A stretch of DNA of 64,000 nucleotides from an uncultured Alphaproteobacteria bacterium. Its GTDB lineage: Bacteria > Pseudomonadota > Alphaproteobacteria > RF32 > CAG-239. The first letter of the stretch is position 1; each line of letters opens with the position of its first letter. The position numbers and the translations under genes were made by a program. Location of the stretch: contig CALXUN010000004.1 in the NCBI GenBank assembly GCA_944391705.1, forward strand, positions 13,126-77,125, written 5' to 3'. This document shows, piece by piece, positions 16,352 through 22,017 of this stretch. A model generated the notes under the pieces. The model was not told the DNA's origin. It saw only the letters and a list, made by a program, of their open reading frames with translations, and ran no database searches.

Positions 16352-16504
16352 ATTCTTTTTCCTTTATTAATAAAACGCGATAAAAAATATTATAATGCCC
16401 TGCAAATAATATCCATAAAAATTTGCAACATTTTCAAAAAAACACTTGTTTTAAAAAAATAATGTTGTATTAGTATAGCTACCTCAGACAATAAAATGTC
16501 GTAA

Positions 16505-16581
16505 CGGATTGTAGTTCAGCCTGGTAGAACGCTTCGTTCGGGTCGAAGAGGTCGCTGGTTCGAGTCCAGTCAATCCGACCA
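16505..16581 (+). tRNA. tRNA-Pro (CGG)
   Basis: Acceptor cggattg/caatccg, anticodon loop ttCGGgt with G37, T-loop ttcgagt, discriminator A, CCA encoded. Confidence 0.8.
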
Positions 16582-16584
16582 AAT

Positions 16585-16613
16585 AAAAAAGCCGCCTTTA
16601 CGGCGGTTTTTTT
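16585..16613 (+). terminator. Rho-independent terminator after tRNA-Pro(CGG)
   Basis: gccgcctttacggcgg hairpin followed by a T7 run. Confidence 0.7.
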
Positions 16614-16619
16614 ATGTGG

Positions 16620-16815
16620 TATGAAAATGGGAGAAGAACCAGCGACCTCGATAGAGGCTCGAGGATAAAAACAACCGGAGTAGCGGTTGTTTTTACCGCA
16701 AGAGGCGCCGTTTTGTTATTTGAGTGAGACGAGCGACAGCCGGCGAAACGAAATCTACAAAACAAGTGACCGACGCGCGGTTAGTGAGCGTCTAGCGAAC
16801 TTACCAAGCGAGAGA
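16620..16815. repeat. GC-rich insert-family segment; carries an inverted partial tRNA-Pro T-arm copy at 16631..16650
   Basis: Shares gcgacagc / ttagtgagcg / cgaac motifs with 6257..6451. Composition contrasts with the AT-rich flanks. Confidence 0.55.
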
Positions 16816-16840
16816 GGTTCGAGTCCAGTCAATCCGACCA
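16816..16840 (+). repeat. 25-nt exact copy of the tRNA-Pro(CGG) 3' end (att-like direct repeat) followed by its own terminator
   Basis: ggttcgagtccagtcaatccgacca equals 16557..16581; terminator aaagcctgtcttttagacaggttttttt at 16849..16877. Confidence 0.8.
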
Positions 16841-16994
16841 TCAAACATAAAGCCTGTCTTTTAGACAGGTTTTTTTGTTTGATAATTGCGTTAGCAATGG
16901 ACACGAACCAGCGAACGCTGGTTTGACTACAAGCGAAAGGCGGGCGGCAGAACGCCGGTCGGCTGATAAGCCGATGAGCGTAGTGAACGAAGTA

Positions 16995-17006
16995 GTCCAG
17001 TCAATA
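16995..17006 (+). repeat. Third, degenerate tRNA-Pro 3'-end fragment (agtccagtcaat) followed by a terminator
   Basis: 12-nt match to the T-stem/acceptor region; terminator aaaaacctgtctttttagacaggttttttt at 17018..17047. Confidence 0.5.
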
Positions 17007-17046
17007 AGGACCAAATAAAAAACCTGTCTTTTTAGACAGGTTTTTT

Positions 17047-17661
17047 TCATACTTGCTGACGTTTCCGGTATTCAGCACAAAGCAGCTCATACTCCAAAGC
17101 TTTTAACGGCGAATAAGCATCTTCCAGTTCATCAAACAAAACACTTATCCGGACACTGATCTCCGAAGTTGTCATCTGCGGAATTTTTTCTTTAAGTATG
17201 GCCAATAAATATTCCTGAGCCGCCTTTTCATCCCGACCAGCAGCTGCCGTATAAATAATGACATCCCCGCAGCAAAGCTTATTCAGCGACTTGTTTTTTC
17301 GATAACAAATAATCAAAACAACCATGGTTGACAAACAAACCGCTAACGCCACAATGAAAAAAATTCCAAGCCGGTCCGAACCATAAACCATGGCAAAATA
17401 TAAACAAACAGCCAGACAACCAACAATCAGAATGACAGAAAGGCTCCAGTTCAAAGCAAACTCAATAACGGACTGTCCTTTATCAACCGCTTTAGCCGTC
17501 TTCTCATTCGGAGCAAAAATTACCCACGGAGATTTTATGAAAAAACGATTCCGCATAAAGGTAAACATCATCAGGCCTTTTTCTTCCGGAACAACGCCAA
17601 ATCTGTCTTTAAACCACATAAAAGCGTCCTGCTGCAACTTTTTATTATCCATAATAATCAT
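17047..17661 (-). CDS. Hypothetical membrane protein (204 aa, 2 TM segments)
   Basis: ORF with hydrophobic core segments; no family recognized. Lies between the tRNA-Pro fragments. Confidence 0.45.
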   Translation of the reverse strand: MIIMDNKKLQQDAFMWFKDRFGVVPEEKGLMMFTFMRNRFFIKSPWVIFAPNEKTAKAVDKGQSVIEFALNWSLSVILIVGCLAVCLYFAMVYGSDRLGIFFIVALAVCLSTMVVLIICYRKNKSLNKLCCGDVIIYTAAAGRDEKAAQEYLLAILKEKIPQMTTSEISVRISVLFDELEDAYSPLKALEYELLCAEYRKRQQV

Positions 17662-17830
17662 AATTTAATTGTTCGACATAATCATAAAATTTAACCGTAC
17701 AATACAAAAAACATGCAGAATTTGCAACATTTTTCTCAAACCCCAAATTTATATTTACATTTTATACAAACCCGGTTAAATTATTTTTCGAAAGCAAATC
17801 TTTTATGTTTAATTATTAAAACTTATACTT

Positions 17831-18055
17831 ATGGAACAATTCAAACTGATTGTAACGGTATGGGCCGGTTTAACTTGTTTGGTCTGTTTATTCATGCTCT
17901 GGATGTTTCCCCGGCTGGGACAGAAAGAGATATTCTATCTCCCTGATGAGCACCTAAAAAAAACCAAAAAATTTGTTTTAAGATGCCTTTATTTCCTTAT
18001 TTGCTGGTTGCTCATTTTCGTCTGTTTTTGTATGTACTATTATATAAAGTGCTGA
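17831..18055 (+). CDS. Small hydrophobic protein (74 aa)
   Basis: Two TM-like segments; terminator hairpin ccggttgtttataaaaacaaccgg downstream. Confidence 0.3.
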   Translation: MEQFKLIVTVWAGLTCLVCLFMLWMFPRLGQKEIFYLPDEHLKKTKKFVLRCLYFLICWLLIFVCFCMYYYIKC

Positions 18056-18111
18056 AAAATCTTATCCGGTTGTTTATAAAAACAACCGGATAAATTCTAT
18101 ACCGGATTTTA

Positions 18112-18202
18112 CCTTTCGCTGGTAGTCGAACCGTCCCCCGACGGTTCAAATCCGAGCCCCGACATTAAAAAAGAGGCCGCTTCCAGCTGGCCTCTTTTTG
18201 GA
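18112..18202 (+). repeat. 91-bp direct repeat copy 1: degenerate plus-strand tRNA-Pro-like 3' end plus terminator
   Basis: About 90% identical to 18274..18364. Contains gacggttcaaatccg T-arm-like sequence and the terminator gaggccgcttccagctggcctc. Confidence 0.7.
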
Positions 18203-18273
18203 TCAGAACAGGCGGATGACTTCGTTCACTGGCGCTCATCGGCTTATCAGCCGACCGGCGTTCTTCAAGCCCG
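18203..18273. repeat. 71-bp segment that is the inverted complement of 16935..17000
   Basis: cgctcatcggcttatcagccgaccggcgttct...gcccgc is the reverse complement of gcgggcggcagaacgccggtcggctgataagccgatgagcg. Confidence 0.7.
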
Positions 18274-18364
18274 CCTTTCGCTGGTAGTCGAACCGTCTTG
18301 CCGACGGTTCAAATCCGGGCCCCGACATTAAAAAAGAGGCCGCTTCCGGCTGGCCTCTTTTTGG
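18274..18364 (+). repeat. 91-bp direct repeat copy 2
   Basis: See copy 1; its 3' end overlaps the 3' end of the minus-strand tRNA-Pro(TGG). Confidence 0.7.
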
Positions 18365-18438
18365 TCGGGACAGGCGGATTCGAACCGTCGGCATCTTGCT
18401 CCCAAAGCAAGCGCTCTACCAGGCTGAGCTATGTCCCG
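18362..18438 (-). tRNA. tRNA-Pro (TGG)
   Basis: Acceptor cgggaca/tgtcccg, anticodon loop ttTGGga, T-loop ttcgaat, discriminator A, CCA encoded. Confidence 0.8.
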
Positions 18439-18613
18439 TTTATATTCAATATATAAGCCTAATAATTTTCTTCAAAGAGCAAGATGCCTCGGCATCTTTC
18501 TTGCTCCATAAGTTTCGCTTTTTCCAAAGCTCAACAACTCCGCTTCGGTCATAGTTACTGTAACATTCGCTTTGTTCGCTTGCACGCTCACACGCTCTTT
18601 AACCGTAACTACC

Positions 18614-18658
18614 CTGAAACTAAAAAAACTTTTCACCGGAAACTTTTTTTAGTTTCAG
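18614..18658. repeat. Perfect 15-bp-stem inverted repeat (ctgaaactaaaaaaa / tttttttagtttcag) abutting the truncated tRNA half
   Basis: Seen directly; the 15-nt loop is cttttcaccggaaac. Confidence 0.7.
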
Positions 18659-18698
18659 CCCAAAGCAAGCGCTCTGACCTAAGCTGAGCTATGTCCCG
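18659..18698 (-). pseudogene. Truncated tRNA-Pro 5' half (acceptor through anticodon loop TTGGG), pseudo-tRNA
   Basis: The first 40 nt match the tRNA-Pro(TGG/GGG) genes, then the sequence diverges into an inverted repeat. Diverged partial 3'-half anticodon-stem copies (gagcaaga..gatgcc..) at 18476..18508. Confidence 0.55.
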
Positions 18699-18733
18699 TT
18701 TTTAACTTTGCAAAATAATATTTTTGATTTTTA

Positions 18734-18810
18734 TGGTCGGGACGAGAGGATTCGAACCTCCGACTTCTTGCACCCCATGCAAGCGCTCTACCAGGCTGAA
18801 CTACGTCCCG
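18734..18810 (-). tRNA. tRNA-Pro (GGG)
   Basis: Acceptor cgggacg/cgtcccg, anticodon loop atGGGgt, T-loop ttcgaat, discriminator A, CCA encoded. Confidence 0.8.
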
Positions 18811-19046
18811 TTAATTTACCATAACTTTACAATAATTTTCTAAACCGTGCAAGAAGTCTCCGACTTCTTGTCTTGCTCCGTAAGCCTCGCTTTGTCATGC
18901 TCGGCAACTTCGCTTCGGTCACGCCTTTACAACAATTTCTGTTTTTCTATATATCTGCTGTTTAAAAATTGCAAGAAAAATCTGCCACATACACAAAGGT
19001 AAAATTTAAACTTGACATATACGCATACCTGGTATATGTATAAAAT

Positions 19047-19063
19047 ATACCCGCGTGGGGTAT
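19047..19063 (+). promoter_or_regulatory. CsoR-family-type operator-like palindrome ATACCCgcgtGGGGTAT overlapping the promoter of the Cys-rich ORF
   Basis: Perfect 6-bp arms around a GC core, immediately downstream of a -35 TTGACA (19012..19017) and a TATAAAAT -10-like element (19039..19046). Confidence 0.45.
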
Positions 19064-19085
19064 GCTTAAATAAGGAGAAAAACAA

Positions 19086-19253
19086 ATGAGTAAATGCAAC
19101 AATCCGAATTGTCATTGTGAAAACTGCCAATGCGGTGATAATTGTCAATGCGGCAAAGAGTGCCGTTGCGGCGAAAATTGCACCTGTGGTGAAAATTGCC
19201 AATGCACCAAGGACAATAAATGTAATCCTGATTGCAACTGTGATAAAAAATAG
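19086..19253 (+). CDS. Cys-rich metallothionein-like peptide (55 aa, 16 Cys; MSKCNNPNCHCENCQCGDNCQCGKECRCGENCTCGENCQCTKDNKCNPDCNCDKK)
   Basis: Hand-translated; AAGGAG RBS 8 nt upstream of the ATG, repeated C-x-C-G-x-N-C motifs, TAG stop at 19251. Below the 60-aa cutoff of the ORF track. Confidence 0.6.
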   Translation: MSKCNNPNCHCENCQCGDNCQCGKECRCGENCTCGENCQCTKDNKCNPDCNCDKK

Positions 19254-19255
19254 CT

Positions 19256-19292
19256 AAAATTCATTCCGGGCAGATTCGCGCTGCCCGGAATA
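19256..19292 (+). other. Hairpin between the Cys-rich ORF and the csoR-like gene (attccgggcag...ctgcccggaat), no T-run
   Basis: 11-bp perfect stem seen in sequence; could attenuate transcription or be a second operator. Confidence 0.4.
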
Positions 19293-19312
19293 TCAACTGC
19301 AAAGGAACAGTC

Positions 19313-19588
19313 ATGGAAAATCATAACCCGAGCCACCTGGAAAATATACCGCGTTTAAACCGCATTGCCGGACAAATTGAAGGTATCAAAAAAATGATTG
19401 AGGAATGCCGTTACTGCCCGGAAATCATCAGTCAGCTTCGTGCCGTACGTTCGGCCGTCAAAGCCGTAGAATCAAATATTTTGCAAAAACACCTGCAGCA
19501 TTGTGTTGCTCAATCATTTGAAAATCCTGCCGAACGTGATAAAAAAATTGAAGAACTGAAAGCTCTCTTTGATCGTTTTGACGGCTAA
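19313..19588 (+). CDS. csoR: CsoR/RcnR-family (DUF156) metal-sensing transcriptional repressor, Cu(I)-type x-C-H-C site
   Basis: 91 aa with RYCxEI and HLxHC motifs; C35/H60/C64 align to the Cu(I) ligands C36/H61/C65 of characterized CsoR. Confidence 0.8.
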   Translation: MENHNPSHLENIPRLNRIAGQIEGIKKMIEECRYCPEIISQLRAVRSAVKAVESNILQKHLQHCVAQSFENPAERDKKIEELKALFDRFDG

Positions 19589-19659
19589 AAACAAAATGCC
19601 GGCTTTCTCGGTACAATAACTTAACGGCACTCAACAAACATTTTACGGACAAACGGACT

Positions 19660-22017
19660 ATGGCAACTTTAGACGAATTGCCGCGCGGCAAAACAGCAAC
19701 AATCACAACGGTTTTGGGAAAAAAAGATTCTTTAAGGCGGCACCTGCTTGAAATGGGACTTATTCCCGGCACGGACGTAACTTTGGTTAAAACCGCACCG
19801 CTCGGCGATCCGCTGGAACTTAAAGTCCGCGGTTATGAACTAACTTTGCGTAAAGCCGATGCTAAAAACATTGTCATTAAAGACATCAGAAAAATTTCCG
19901 CCTGCCCGGTTGAAATTCCCGCGCAAAAAAAGGACATATTCACGCGCAAAGGCGAAAAAAATGCTCTAAATCTGAAGACCGCCGGTGAAATTATTCCGGA
20001 AGGAGCACCGCTTAATTTTGCCTTGGTTGGTAATCAAAATTGCGGTAAAACCACCCTGTTTAACCAGTTAACCGGCTCCAACCAGCACGTCGGCAACTTT
20101 CCAGGTGTTACCGTCGACCGGACGGACGGGCAAATCCGCGGTTTAAACAACGTATCCGTAACCGATTTGCCGGGCATATATTCGCTTTCGCCTTATTCTA
20201 AGGAAGAACTTGTCACACGCGACTTTTTGCTCAAAAACCACCCGGATGCCATCATAAACATTGTTGATGCCTCAAACATTGAGCGCAATTTGTTTTTAAC
20301 GCTCCAGCTGCTGGATTTGCGCATCCCAATGGTCATTGCCTTAAACATGATGGATGAAATCAAAAAAAACGGCGCCTCGATTGATATCAACCGTTTGGAA
20401 CAGACCTTAGGCGTTCCGGTCATTCCGATTTCTGCCTTAAAAAACGAAGGCGTCAATGAATTGATTGAACACGCACTCAATGTAGCCCGCTACCGCGAAA
20501 TCCCGGATAAAGTTGATTTCTGCCTCTGCGGCGGCAAAGACGACGGCGCCGTCCACCGTGCGATTCACGCAATCTCCCACTTAATTGAAAACGACACCGC
20601 TAAAGCGGGAATCCCTTTGCGTTTTGCGGCATCAAAACTGGCTGAAGGCGATGAACCGATATTAAAATCTTTAAAAATCGATGCTGATCATGCTAAAATT
20701 CTGGAAAATATCACTAACCAAATGGAACAGGATTCGCATCTTGACCGCGAAGCGGCCGTTGCCGATATGCGCTTTTCGTTTATTGACAGGCTTTGCGCCG
20801 AATGTGTGTTCAAACCGGTTTTAAGCAAAGAACGTGCCCGGAGCGAAAAGTTGGACCGCATCTTAACCGGAAAATACACAGCGTTGCCGGTCTTTTTAAG
20901 CCTGATGGCCCTGATTTTTTACCTTTCATTCGGCCCGTTCGGTACTTATTTTTCGGATTTGATTGAAAACCTGATTGCTGCCTTAGGTAATATGGTCGGA
21001 ACCGGACTTGATGTTTATGGCATGAATCCGATCGTTAAATCATTTATCATTGACGGCGTATTCGCCGGCGTCGGCAGCGTGTTAAGTTTTCTGCCGGTTA
21101 TTGTTTTGTTGTTTTTCTTCCTCTCCCTTTTGGAAGACAGCGGCTATATGGCGCGCGTTGCTTTTTTTATGGATAAACTGTTACGCAAAGTCGGTTTATC
21201 CGGGCGCAGCTTTGTCCCGATGCTGATTGGCTTTGGCTGTTCGGTACCGGCCATCATGGCCGCCCGCACCCTTCCGTCCGAACGCGATCGTAAAATGACA
21301 ATTATGCTTACTCCTTTTATGAGCTGTACTGCCAAACTGCCGATTTATGTTTTACTGACTGCCGCCTTTTTCGAAACCCGTCAGACTCTTGTTATTATCA
21401 GCCTTTATATGTTGGGAATTCTGATTGGTTTAATATTGGCCTTCATGTTTAAATCCACCTTATTTAAAGGCGAGGCTGTGCCTTTTGTCATGGAATTGCC
21501 GAACTACCGTCTGCCGGGCTTAAAAAATGTCTGGCGGTTGATTTATTACAAAGCCAAATATTTTATTACCAAAGCTTTCACCATCATCTTTGTGGCAACA
21601 ATCATTATCTGGTTTTTAAGTACATTTGACAGCAGGCTGAACCCGGTATCCGATTCTTCTGCAAGTATCTTAAGTGCCGTCGGCAGCCTGATAACGCCGA
21701 TTTTTGCCCCGCTCGGCATTAATGACTGGCGCTTATCCACCGCATTTTTAAGCGGTTTTGCCGCCAAAGAAAGCGTCGTCAGCACTTTGGGCGTCCTGCT
21801 TGAAGGAAACATCGACTTGCTGCCGCAGCTGTTAACACCGTTAAGCGCTTATGCCTTTTTGGTTTTTTCACTCCTTTACACACCATGTGTTGCAGCTGTT
21901 GCCACCGTTAAAAAAGAACTCGGTTTGCGTTATGCATTATTTGTGGTTGGTTTACAATGCGCCATTGCCTGGATTGTTGCCTTTATAATTTATCAGACGG
22001 GACTGCTGATTTTTTAA
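19660..22017 (+). CDS. feoB: Ferrous iron transporter FeoA-FeoB fusion
   Basis: 785 aa; N-terminal FeoA SH3-like domain (~75 aa), then G-domain (GNQNCGKTTLFN) and the polytopic FeoB permease core. Confidence 0.9.
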   Translation: MATLDELPRGKTATITTVLGKKDSLRRHLLEMGLIPGTDVTLVKTAPLGDPLELKVRGYELTLRKADAKNIVIKDIRKISACPVEIPAQKKDIFTRKGEKNALNLKTAGEIIPEGAPLNFALVGNQNCGKTTLFNQLTGSNQHVGNFPGVTVDRTDGQIRGLNNVSVTDLPGIYSLSPYSKEELVTRDFLLKNHPDAIINIVDASNIERNLFLTLQLLDLRIPMVIALNMMDEIKKNGASIDINRLEQTLGVPVIPISALKNEGVNELIEHALNVARYREIPDKVDFCLCGGKDDGAVHRAIHAISHLIENDTAKAGIPLRFAASKLAEGDEPILKSLKIDADHAKILENITNQMEQDSHLDREAAVADMRFSFIDRLCAECVFKPVLSKERARSEKLDRILTGKYTALPVFLSLMALIFYLSFGPFGTYFSDLIENLIAALGNMVGTGLDVYGMNPIVKSFIIDGVFAGVGSVLSFLPVIVLLFFFLSLLEDSGYMARVAFFMDKLLRKVGLSGRSFVPMLIGFGCSVPAIMAARTLPSERDRKMTIMLTPFMSCTAKLPIYVLLTAAFFETRQTLVIISLYMLGILIGLILAFMFKSTLFKGEAVPFVMELPNYRLPGLKNVWRLIYYKAKYFITKAFTIIFVATIIIWFLSTFDSRLNPVSDSSASILSAVGSLITPIFAPLGINDWRLSTAFLSGFAAKESVVSTLGVLLEGNIDLLPQLLTPLSAYAFLVFSLLYTPCVAAVATVKKELGLRYALFVVGLQCAIAWIVAFIIYQTGLLIF

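Follow-up and report, generated by a model that had tools for sequence, protein, structure and literature searches.

A cysteine-rich peptide gene, a CsoR-type operator and a CsoR-family repressor gene form a predicted metallothionein module in uncultured gut Alphaproteobacteria

Results

A cysteine-rich small gene under purifying selection

In a 64,000-nucleotide (nt) stretch of DNA from an uncultured Alphaproteobacteria bacterium (assembly GCA_944391705.1, contig CALXUN010000004.1), hereafter called the window, we analyzed a small gene at 19086..19253 that encodes a peptide very rich in cysteine and is followed by a gene for a CsoR-family repressor. The small gene is real and its reading frame is under strong purifying selection; across related loci it is conserved together with the repressor gene and with a characteristic promoter box, and the repressor carries the ligand set of CsoR proteins. 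We consider it probable that the peptide is a metallothionein encoded in a CsoR-repressed, autoregulated and metal-inducible sequestration operon.

The gene runs on the forward strand from an ATG at 19086 through 55 codons to a TAG at 19251-19253, and a ribosome-binding site, AAGGAG (19072-19077), can be read from the sequence 8 nt 5' of the start codon. Translation confirmed the preliminary description of this DNA, which had pointed to a 55-residue open reading frame (ORF) with 16 cysteines at this place, and gives the product MSKCNNPNCHCENCQCGDNCQCGKECRCGENCTCGENCQCTKDNKCNPDCNCDKK. The peptide is built of hexapeptide units of the form C-x-C-G-x-x, holds 16 cysteines (29%) and a single histidine, lacks phenylalanine, tyrosine and tryptophan, and begins with MSKCNNP, in which no signal peptide can be read. 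In size, in a cysteine content of ∼30% arranged as CxC and CxxC, and in having neither aromatic residues nor a signal peptide, it conforms to what is expected of a metallothionein sequence, and it is the sole ORF of 25-130 residues with at least 20% cysteine in the window.

Using a DNA-level search, we found that 156 species-level genomes encode a relative of the peptide, and 80 loci were kept for comparison (loci are cited below by L numbers and database proteins by P numbers). The ORF is intact in 78 loci, in which the start motif M-x-K-C-x-N-P-x-C-x-C-x-x-C-x-C-G is invariant, and a csoR gene lies 3' of it on the same strand, directly or past one exporter gene, in ∼65 of 78; conservation of the ORF beside csoR homologues was a check proposed in the preliminary description. 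Among the orthologues, ORF length varies from 28 to 66 residues and cysteine number from 7 to 19; the length differences correspond to gain or loss of repeat units, and the indels are in frame in every case. Over the first 22 codons of 68 distinct nucleotide versions, entropy at codon positions 1, 2 and 3 was 0.24, 0.18 and 1.08, respectively, and the ratio of non-synonymous to synonymous differences (pN/pS) over the same codons was 0.10 in the ORF frame as compared to 2.8 and 1.0 for the other two frames. In addition, a GGAG, GAGG or AGGA motif is present at −4 to −18 of the peptide start in 79 of 80 loci. Taken together, frame-specific selection, the Shine-Dalgarno-like motif and the in-frame indels rule out a chance ORF.

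The same data bear on the alternative that the ORF does not act as a protein but either serves csoR as a leader or attenuator ORF or stands open by chance within a repeat. Its shortness, its repetitive make-up, its position 5' of a regulator gene and the fact that gene callers seldom report it would all fit such a view; however, a pN/pS of 0.10 in the ORF frame only, a strong ribosome-binding site in nearly every locus and indels that always preserve the frame argue against it, as do stand-alone paralogues without csoR and, in two species, an in-frame fusion of the peptide to CsoR (see below). We regard this alternative as largely refuted and give it almost no probability.

No match to the peptide above cutoff was found in the curated families of Pfam and NCBIfam. 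The sole Pfam match was Metallothio_5 at 14.1 bits (E = 0.052), under its cutoff of 25, and the BmtA/SmtA profile PF02069 (Metallothio_Pro) gave no match at E ≤ 1, in keeping with the earlier statement that the peptide does not resemble SmtA or BmtA. Weak matches to LpxD were rejected, as they merely mirror the six-residue periodicity. A profile search of the PDB returned a single near-match, a snail Cd-metallothionein (E=0.04), which is compositional and non-significant. The near-matches of the peptide in Pfam and in the PDB are thus both to metallothioneins of animals, and neither is significant. An AlphaFold model computed from a 7-sequence alignment had a pLDDT of 52 and no secondary structure; such a low-confidence model is compatible with a fold that depends on metal, yet it is no evidence for one. 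Searches among 8 million papers gave no match to the peptide motifs, and those joining bacterial metallothioneins with CsoR gave no description of such a family. Judged by its sequence, the peptide thus apparently represents an undescribed family of bacterial metallothioneins.

The adjoining gene encodes a CsoR-family sensor

The gene that follows, at 19313..19588 on the forward strand, is preceded by a ribosome-binding site, AAGGAA (19302-19307), and encodes a protein of 91 residues. Residues 12-87 match Pfam PF02583 (Trns_repr_metal/DUF156) with 93.9 bits (cutoff 22.8; E = 8e-27), which places the protein in this family, and Cys35, His60 and Cys64 align with the ligand cysteines and histidine of the solved CsoR proteins of Geobacillus thermodenitrificans (4m1p) and Streptomyces lividans (4adz). 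Both results uphold the previous designation of this gene as a DUF156 repressor with a C35/H60/C64 ligand set. The two copper CsoRs are its closest relatives in the PDB, followed by InrS (5fmn), and share with it the motifs R-Y-C and H-x-x-H-C-V-A. Among NCBIfam models, RicR scored best, at 67.7 bits and below its cutoff, ahead of RcnR and FrmR. A homologue search with the sensor returned its own clade only (at least 66% identity, generic names) and no characterized outgroup.

The ligand fingerprint of Cu(I)-sensing CsoR proteins is x-C-H-C, represented in Mycobacterium tuberculosis by Cys36, His61 and Cys65, and the window protein displays it. It also has the second-shell tyrosine before the first cysteine and the second-shell Glu81, which we equate with Glu81 in the allosteric network of the M. 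tuberculosis CsoR; since InrS has the second-shell glutamate too, this residue is not copper-specific.

Conservation was scored over 44 distinct sequences of the clade. Tyr34, Cys35, Cys64 and Glu81 (within I-x-E-L) are invariant, His60 is present in 43 and His63 in 41, and Cys32, which gives the window protein a CxxC, is variable across the clade. A histidine at position 8, embedded in P-x-H-x-x-N-[ILM]-P-R-L-N-R, is likewise found in 44/44, and the structures of Cu-sensing CsoRs have glutamate or lysine there; His8 may therefore be a clade-specific fourth ligand. The W ligand of InrS, His21, aligns with residue 4 of the window protein (His4), at which only 6/44 clade members have histidine.

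A CsoR-type operator tied to the peptide gene

A −35 hexamer, TTGACA, can be read at 19012..19017 on the forward strand, and TTGAC precedes the peptide gene in 74/79 loci. Downstream of it lie three boxes of the form ATAC-N9-GTAT, in two sites. Operator site 1 (19019..19041) is made of two overlapping boxes, ATACGCATACCTGGTAT at 19019-19035 and ATACCTGGTATATGTAT at 19025-19041; it fills the spacer between the −35 and −10 elements and covers a −10-like TATGTA at 19035-19040. The same nested palindrome, ATAC..ATAC.N3.GTAT..GTAT, stands at this place in six further loci (L003, L006, L007, L032, L034 and L042). Operator site 2, ATACCCGCGTGGGGTAT, occupies 19047..19063, between the −10 region and the ribosome-binding site.

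The preliminary description had read operator site 2 as a perfect palindrome that resembles CsoR-bound repeats. Its likeness to a CsoR operator stands, whereas the palindrome is not strictly perfect: the arms ATACCC and GGGTAT (6 + 6 nt) are interrupted by a centre of 5 nt. The motif ATACC-N7-GGTAT occurs once in the 64-kb window, at this site, with 0.04 occurrences expected by chance. Across ∼797 kb of related DNA, all 59 of the exact ATACC-N7-GGTAT boxes fall within 130 nt 5' of a peptide gene and none elsewhere, and ATAC-N9-GTAT precedes the peptide gene in 68/79 loci, against 0.003 per 130 nt in the background. In 55 loci, the first box begins 7-9 nt past TTGAC, and at least two separate operator sites are present in 24. 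The box arms are kept while the centre varies freely, which is the pattern expected for a protein-binding site.

Type-2 CsoR operators are described as a TAC-N9-GTA pseudopalindrome with G/C tracts, with the Streptomyces consensus ATATACCCCTNAGGGGTATAT (PMC3902906), and the CsoR box of Bradyrhizobium liaoningense is TATACCCnnnnnGGGTATA (PMC5057107). The three boxes beginning at 19019, 19025 and 19047 all follow the type-2 TAC-N9-GTA rule. These comparisons support the prediction that the ATAC-N9-GTAT boxes are a CsoR-type operator, tied in the related loci exclusively to the peptide gene. A terminator scan also reported operator site 2 and the hairpin described in the following section, each on the minus strand only, and these reports were rejected as functional.

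Arrangement of the gene pair

The csoR homologues at the related loci are 56-91% identical to that of the window, and the gap between peptide gene and csoR takes one of two forms. In the first, it measures 3-15 nt and contains no hairpin; in the second, seen in ∼20 loci and in the window, it measures 47-130 nt and contains a GC-rich hairpin. In the window, this hairpin (19263..19291, forward strand) has an 11-bp GC-rich stem, a 7-nt loop and no U-tract, and a minimum free energy of −22.1 kcal/mol (z = −3.8), with none of 200 shuffled sequences being as stable. The hairpins of the other loci of this form are unrelated in sequence, range from −11.6 to −38.5 kcal/mol (mostly ≤ −17) and in several cases have a T-run, so that the position of the hairpin is conserved and its sequence is not. 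Only ∼20 nt separate the hairpin from the csoR ribosome-binding site, which leaves no room for a separate promoter and suggests that csoR is reached by read-through.

In two rumen metagenome-assembled genomes, the two genes are joined in frame into a single metallothionein-CsoR reading frame of 127 residues behind a CsoR box (L061 5001-5384 and L065 5001-5384), to which the metallothionein contributes its N-terminal module of ∼37 residues. Several residues differ between the two copies, which an assembly error would not explain. These Rosetta-stone fusions of buffer and sensor hint at a direct hand-over of metal between the two.

Downstream of csoR in the window lies a gene for a FeoA-FeoB fusion protein of 785 residues (19660..22017, forward strand; Pfam FeoA, FeoB_N, Gate and FeoB_C). 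The intervening 71 nt (19589-19659) contain no terminator-like hairpin, no recognizable promoter and no conserved Fur-like or CsoR box. A feoAB gene follows csoR in eight loci, the window included (the others being L003, L004, L005, L009, L019, L033 and L036). It is possible that feoAB is a downstream passenger of the same transcript, outside the core module, in which case a ferrous-iron importer would share a transcript with a metal-stress operon.

Three loci carry a gene for a membrane protein of ∼117 residues between the peptide gene and csoR (L053 5264-5578, L054 5229-5582 and L078 5241-5609). The protein has a CCC run and, within the first helix, CCG(V)P; it found no match in NCBIfam and recalls MerT/MerC-type carriers of thiophilic metals.

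Distribution of the family and its loss from annotation

Nearly all of the kept loci come from gut or rumen metagenome-assembled genomes, and their submitters labeled them as uncultured Alphaproteobacteria, Azospirillum sp., Azospirillaceae or Rhodospirillales; in the GTDB, 'Azospirillum sp. 51_20' and its relatives presumably fall into the order RF32. A wider host range, as suggested by the labels of L054 (Bacteroidaceae), L080 (Muribaculaceae) and L081 (Mycolicibacterium), was rejected. L054 is nearly identical in sequence and gene order to L053, which is labeled uncultured Azospirillum sp., so that its Bacteroidaceae label probably reflects a binning contaminant, and in L080 and L081 the peptide start motif is missing.

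Protein databases hold few members of the family. When 5.8 billion protein clusters were searched by word index, 6 relatives of the peptide came up, and 13 proteins were recovered when 1.84 billion representatives were compared exhaustively with a profile. In the TGY-rich peptide gene, both the +1 frame and the antisense strand stay open, and gene callers therefore choose an antisense ORF or over-extend csoR, with the real gene remaining hidden. In the window, such shadow ORFs are found at 19117..19257 on the forward strand (+1 frame, 46 residues), overlapping the peptide gene, and at 18927..19202 on the reverse strand (91 residues), antisense to it. Deposited csoR products of 142-158 residues (P0039, P0047 and P0068) begin with 50-68 residues that are a +1-frame reading of the metallothionein gene, and P0047 is the ORF at L015:575-1051, identical save for its start residue. 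The small number of database clusters relative to the 156 genomes found at the DNA level, together with the over-extended csoR calls, bears out the earlier expectation that automated annotation would miss this ORF.

In about ten loci, the peptide gene is a paralogue that has no csoR beside it and no box in front (L013, L025, L047, L056, L058, L060, L066, L079 and L082 among them), and genomes that hold both a paralogue and a canonical copy elsewhere are represented by the pairs L045/L058, L010/L066, L018/L065 and L024/L073. Five of these loci (L047, L056, L058, L060 and L066) carry second, shorter copies of 38-51 residues ∼1-2 kb 3' of a serine-recombinase gene. The copy in L047 is nearly pure CQCGED, repeated six times, which suggests expansion by 18-nt units, and L047 has a different spacer palindrome, GTCTGT-N5-ACAGAC.

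The N-P-x-C-x-C-x-x-C-x-C-G module is also encountered in organisms outside the clade (P0008, P0011, P0015 and P0017; L083-L088). P0008 is a protein of 645 residues with 11 tandem copies of it. None of the stand-alone peptide genes outside the clade adjoins csoR, and one lies beside a gene for an AraC-type regulator. The distant protein relatives P0011, P0015 and P0017 do not adjoin csoR and are uninformative with respect to the metal.

Which metal is sensed and bound

With regard to the metal, Cu(I) on the one side and Zn(II)/Cd(II) on the other are about equally supported, and a mixed response takes most of the remaining probability.

The reading as a copper-only module, in which a classical Cu(I) CsoR with a trigonal Cys-His-Cys site would control a Cu(I)-thionein as a functional analogue of RicR-MymT, is one to which we give appreciable though minority weight. 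It accords with the nearest solved relatives of the sensor, the Cu(I) CsoRs of Geobacillus and Streptomyces with their common R-Y-C ... H-x-x-H-C-V-A, and with RicR as the best NCBIfam model. The clade conserves both the x-C-H-C set and the second-shell Tyr and Glu, the operator has the form of those of Cu-CsoRs, and an all-cysteine, nearly histidine-free peptide suits Cu(I). Genomic context points the other way. The genes for a P1B-1 ATPase (copA) and an HMA-domain protein (copZ) are nearly always found near bona fide Cu-sensing CsoRs and have been used to assign Cu-sensor clusters (PMC8643695), yet no gene of either kind was found when −4/+5 kb around the peptide gene was examined in ∼80 loci, and a Pfam scan of 11 window ORFs, comprising three of the largest and those that flank the module, likewise gave none. 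The neighborhood expected of a Cu(I) sensor is thus lacking over this range, which counts against copper alone. Moreover, the co-operonic exporter of ∼25 loci is of a ZitB-like kind with H-x-x-x-D / H-x-x-x-D sites, the invariant His8 is missing in the structures of Cu-CsoRs, and InrS shows that copper does not follow from a C-H-C core alone (PMC3320959).

This exporter belongs to the cation diffusion facilitator (CDF) family. Its gene forms part of the order metallothionein-csoR-CDF or metallothionein-CDF-csoR in ∼25/78 loci, spread over three sub-clades of the sensor, and in these loci the only operator sits 5' of the peptide gene. The protein scores best against ZitB, at 169-174 bits and below the equivalog cutoff, and reaches 97 bits against DmeF (cutoff 250). 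It has HxxxD in transmembrane segments 2 and 5 (H-D-H-D), a His-rich N-terminus, and a Cys-rich C-terminus with a C-x-E-C-C tail. Exporters of the ZitB-like class move divalent ions (Zn, Cd, Co and Ni) and not Cu(I). In addition, a gene for a ZntA/CadA-type P1B-2 ATPase (CPC, Lys and D-x-G motifs; ATPase-IB2_Cd, 521 bits) lies 1-2 kb 5' of the module in L009, L033, L036 and L052, separated from it by unrelated genes and without a box; this is the sole type of P-type ATPase met near the module.

These neighbors make up much of the case for a Zn/Cd module, possibly serving Co and Ni as well, in which a tetrahedral His2Cys2 site of His8, Cys35, His60 and Cys64 would respond to the metal and a Zn/Cd-thionein would be induced together with the CDF from the one operator. 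We hold such a module to be a tentative reading, short of an even chance. Apart from the ZitB-like CDF and the P1B-2 ATPase, the presence of His8 in 44/44 speaks for it, as does the CsoR of B. liaoningense, which has the same box and is derepressed by Zn2+ and Cd2+ as well as by Cu+ (PMC5057107). Against it stands the window itself, where no CDF gene adjoins the module and feoAB is found instead. His8 lies four residues away from the position of the W-site histidine of InrS and RcnR, which makes its role as a ligand a conjecture, and the sensor is overall nearer to Cu-CsoRs than to InrS or RcnR. The ATPase gene is set apart from the module, as noted above. We also know of no dedicated Zn-sensing member of the CsoR family.

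The more specific proposal that the CsoR-family repressors of this clade have been re-tuned to Zn(II)/Cd(II) through a His2Cys2 site with His8 and co-regulate a new metallothionein and a ZitB-like CDF appears to us rather unlikely as it stands. If true, the CsoR/RcnR family would gain its first sensor dedicated to Zn/Cd, and the animal circuit in which MTF-1 controls metallothionein and ZnT1 would have a parallel in bacteria. By analogy, a mixed response to Cu, Zn and Cd, for which the Bradyrhizobium CsoR sets a precedent, could reconcile both sides. In view of the neighbors of its relatives and of His8, the description of the window protein as a Cu(I) sensor can be retained for its ligand set and its solved relatives, whereas a specific assignment to copper goes too far.

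A gene for a metallo-beta-lactamase-fold protein of 263 residues occurs in at least 11 loci (L017-L028 and others; for example L018 2237-3028), after the CDF gene or, in L003 and L019, after csoR, and it often follows the CDF-containing arrangements. Persulfide dioxygenases have this fold. Its presence, the gut and rumen habitat of the hosts and the ability of two-cysteine members of the CsoR family to sense persulfides (PMC8643695) would be in line with a non-metal alternative, namely a CstR-like sensor of persulfide or thiol stress paired with a sacrificial thiol/persulfide buffer for the sulfide-rich gut. However, CstR-type proteins have an x-C-x-C set, while His60 is kept in 43/44 sequences here; no rhodanese, sulfide:quinone oxidoreductase or TauE-type genes were found among the recurring neighbor clusters, and the recurring partner is a metal exporter. 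We therefore consider this alternative very improbable.

Region upstream of the module

The Rfam scan of the window returned tRNAs only. Two tRNA-Pro genes lie 5' of the module on the opposite strand, and tRNA genes and fragments of such genes abound from 16400 to 18950. The 3' end of an intact tRNA gene (16505-16578) recurs as an exact 25-nt copy at 16816-16840 and, in part, as a third copy near 16994; partial copies of a tRNA-Pro 3' end are found at 18659-18704, and a direct repeat of 64 nt at 18138-18201 and 18301-18364. A perfect inverted repeat of 32 nt (16949-16980 and 18233-18264) flanks an unannotatable ORF of 204 residues on the reverse strand (17047-17661). From its sequence, the region looks as if elements had repeatedly integrated and excised at tRNA genes and left scars.

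Discussion

Our results suggest a model in which the first gene would provide a small cytosolic metallothionein, whose 16 thiolates would wrap several soft metal ions into metal-thiolate clusters, and the second a tetrameric repressor of the CsoR family. When the metal is absent, the repressor would sit on the three TAC-N9-GTA boxes; two of these overlap in the −35/−10 spacer and over the −10 element, and RNA polymerase would thereby be blocked, while the third lies between the −10 element and the ribosome-binding site. A thiophilic metal filling the site of Cys35, His60 and Cys64, possibly with His8 as a fourth ligand, would release the repressor from the DNA, so that the metallothionein would be made in quantity and the metal buffered. 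As free metal falls, the repressor would rebind, closing a negative feedback loop. Since csoR would be transcribed only by read-through from the same promoter, it would be autoregulated, and the hairpin, as a partial terminator or a 3' stabilizer, may keep the level of csoR well below that of the metallothionein.

Several points weigh against this model. The module is known here from sequence alone. The paralogues that lack both csoR and box indicate that the peptide is not always under CsoR control. A consensus sigma-70 scan left the promoter uncalled, because its −10 element (TATGTA) is weak, and the hairpin of the window, having no U-tract, can be assigned a role only as a guess. Finally, similarity of the sensor points to Cu(I), while the gene neighborhood in relatives, with a ZitB-like CDF and a ZntA-like ATPase but neither copA nor copZ, points to Zn/Cd.

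The preliminary description had named the locus a candidate novel copper metallothionein plus sensor module; a new family and a module are what we find as well, and the word copper was premature. It had not included the two overlapping boxes, the hairpin at 19263-19291, His8 of the sensor or the exporter context in relatives.

To our knowledge, bacterial metallothioneins are rare, with the SmtA/BmtA family and MymT as the only firmly established cases. The present peptides would form a third family, unrelated in sequence to either, with members in at least ∼150 species among the uncultured Alphaproteobacteria of gut and rumen and hardly any entries in protein databases. They offer a concrete case of small Cys-rich genes lost in annotation, and sensor, operator and buffer together would make a compact, self-contained cassette. 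A 2024 review of bacterial metal handling lists as cytoplasmic copper sinks MymT, CutC, CopZ and Csp only (PMC11672702). The combination of a C-H-C core with an invariant histidine beside a zinc-type exporter raises the question of how CsoR-family proteins select their metal. Livestock receive high doses of copper and zinc with their feed, and widespread sequestration by gut bacteria would hence be relevant to the metal tolerance of the microbiome. The finding overturns nothing previously held.

Among known systems, the nearest in logic is RicR-MymT of M. tuberculosis, in which a paralogue of CsoR represses a small Cu(I) metallothionein (PMC3944814, and Gold et al. 2008 cited therein). In both, a CsoR-family repressor is paired with a palindrome in the promoter of a Cys-rich sequestering protein of ∼50 residues and in that of its own gene. 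In contrast to the separate loci of M. tuberculosis, a single operon is found here, in Gram-negative gut Alphaproteobacteria; copper specificity is not established for it, and in many species a CDF exporter belongs to the unit. The parallel with RicR-MymT drawn in the preliminary description is therefore sound as to logic, but does not extend to homology of the peptide with MymT: a BLASTP comparison with MymT gave 15 bits over 18 residues (E=0.03 for the single pair) and appears to reflect the cysteine pattern only, and none of the 13 proteins from the profile search of 1.84 billion representatives is MymT-like.

The csoR-cueA divergon of B. liaoningense (PMC5057107) likewise features an alphaproteobacterial CsoR and a box, TATACCC-N5-GGGTATA, of the same kind, but its target is a P1B-type ATPase, its layout is divergent, and it includes neither a metallothionein nor a CDF. 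SmtB-SmtA/BmtA (PF02069) also places a metal-sensing repressor over a small bacterial metallothionein, there for the buffering of Zn and Cd. The repressor belongs to the ArsR/SmtB family instead of CsoR, and SmtA/BmtA has a zinc-finger-like fold with histidine and aromatic residues as opposed to the all-cysteine hexapeptide repeats seen here.

DmeR has the RcnR-type ligand set H-C-H-H. The DmeR-DmeF pair of Rhizobiales consists of an RcnR-type repressor and a CDF exporter for Co/Ni (see PMC6044271 and PMC9820535), and it resembles the present loci in that a CsoR/RcnR-family repressor is co-operonic with a CDF in Alphaproteobacteria. However, the last ligand, at the Z position, is cysteine here (44/44), DmeRF contains no metallothionein, the CDF of the relatives stays far under the DmeF cutoff (97 versus 250 bits) and none adjoins the module in the window, so that the module does not belong to this group. 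InrS of Synechocystis, a Ni-sensing repressor of the CsoR family with an H-C-H-C set (PDB 5fmn; PMC3320959), shares the C-H-C core and an N-terminal histidine, and illustrates the use of a CsoR-like ligand set for a divalent metal; it controls a Ni exporter and not a metallothionein, and the invariant histidine of the present clade is residue 8 and not the InrS-aligned residue 4. Overall, on the evidence of these sequence comparisons, the regulatory logic of the module is known from RicR-MymT and the protein family appears to be new.

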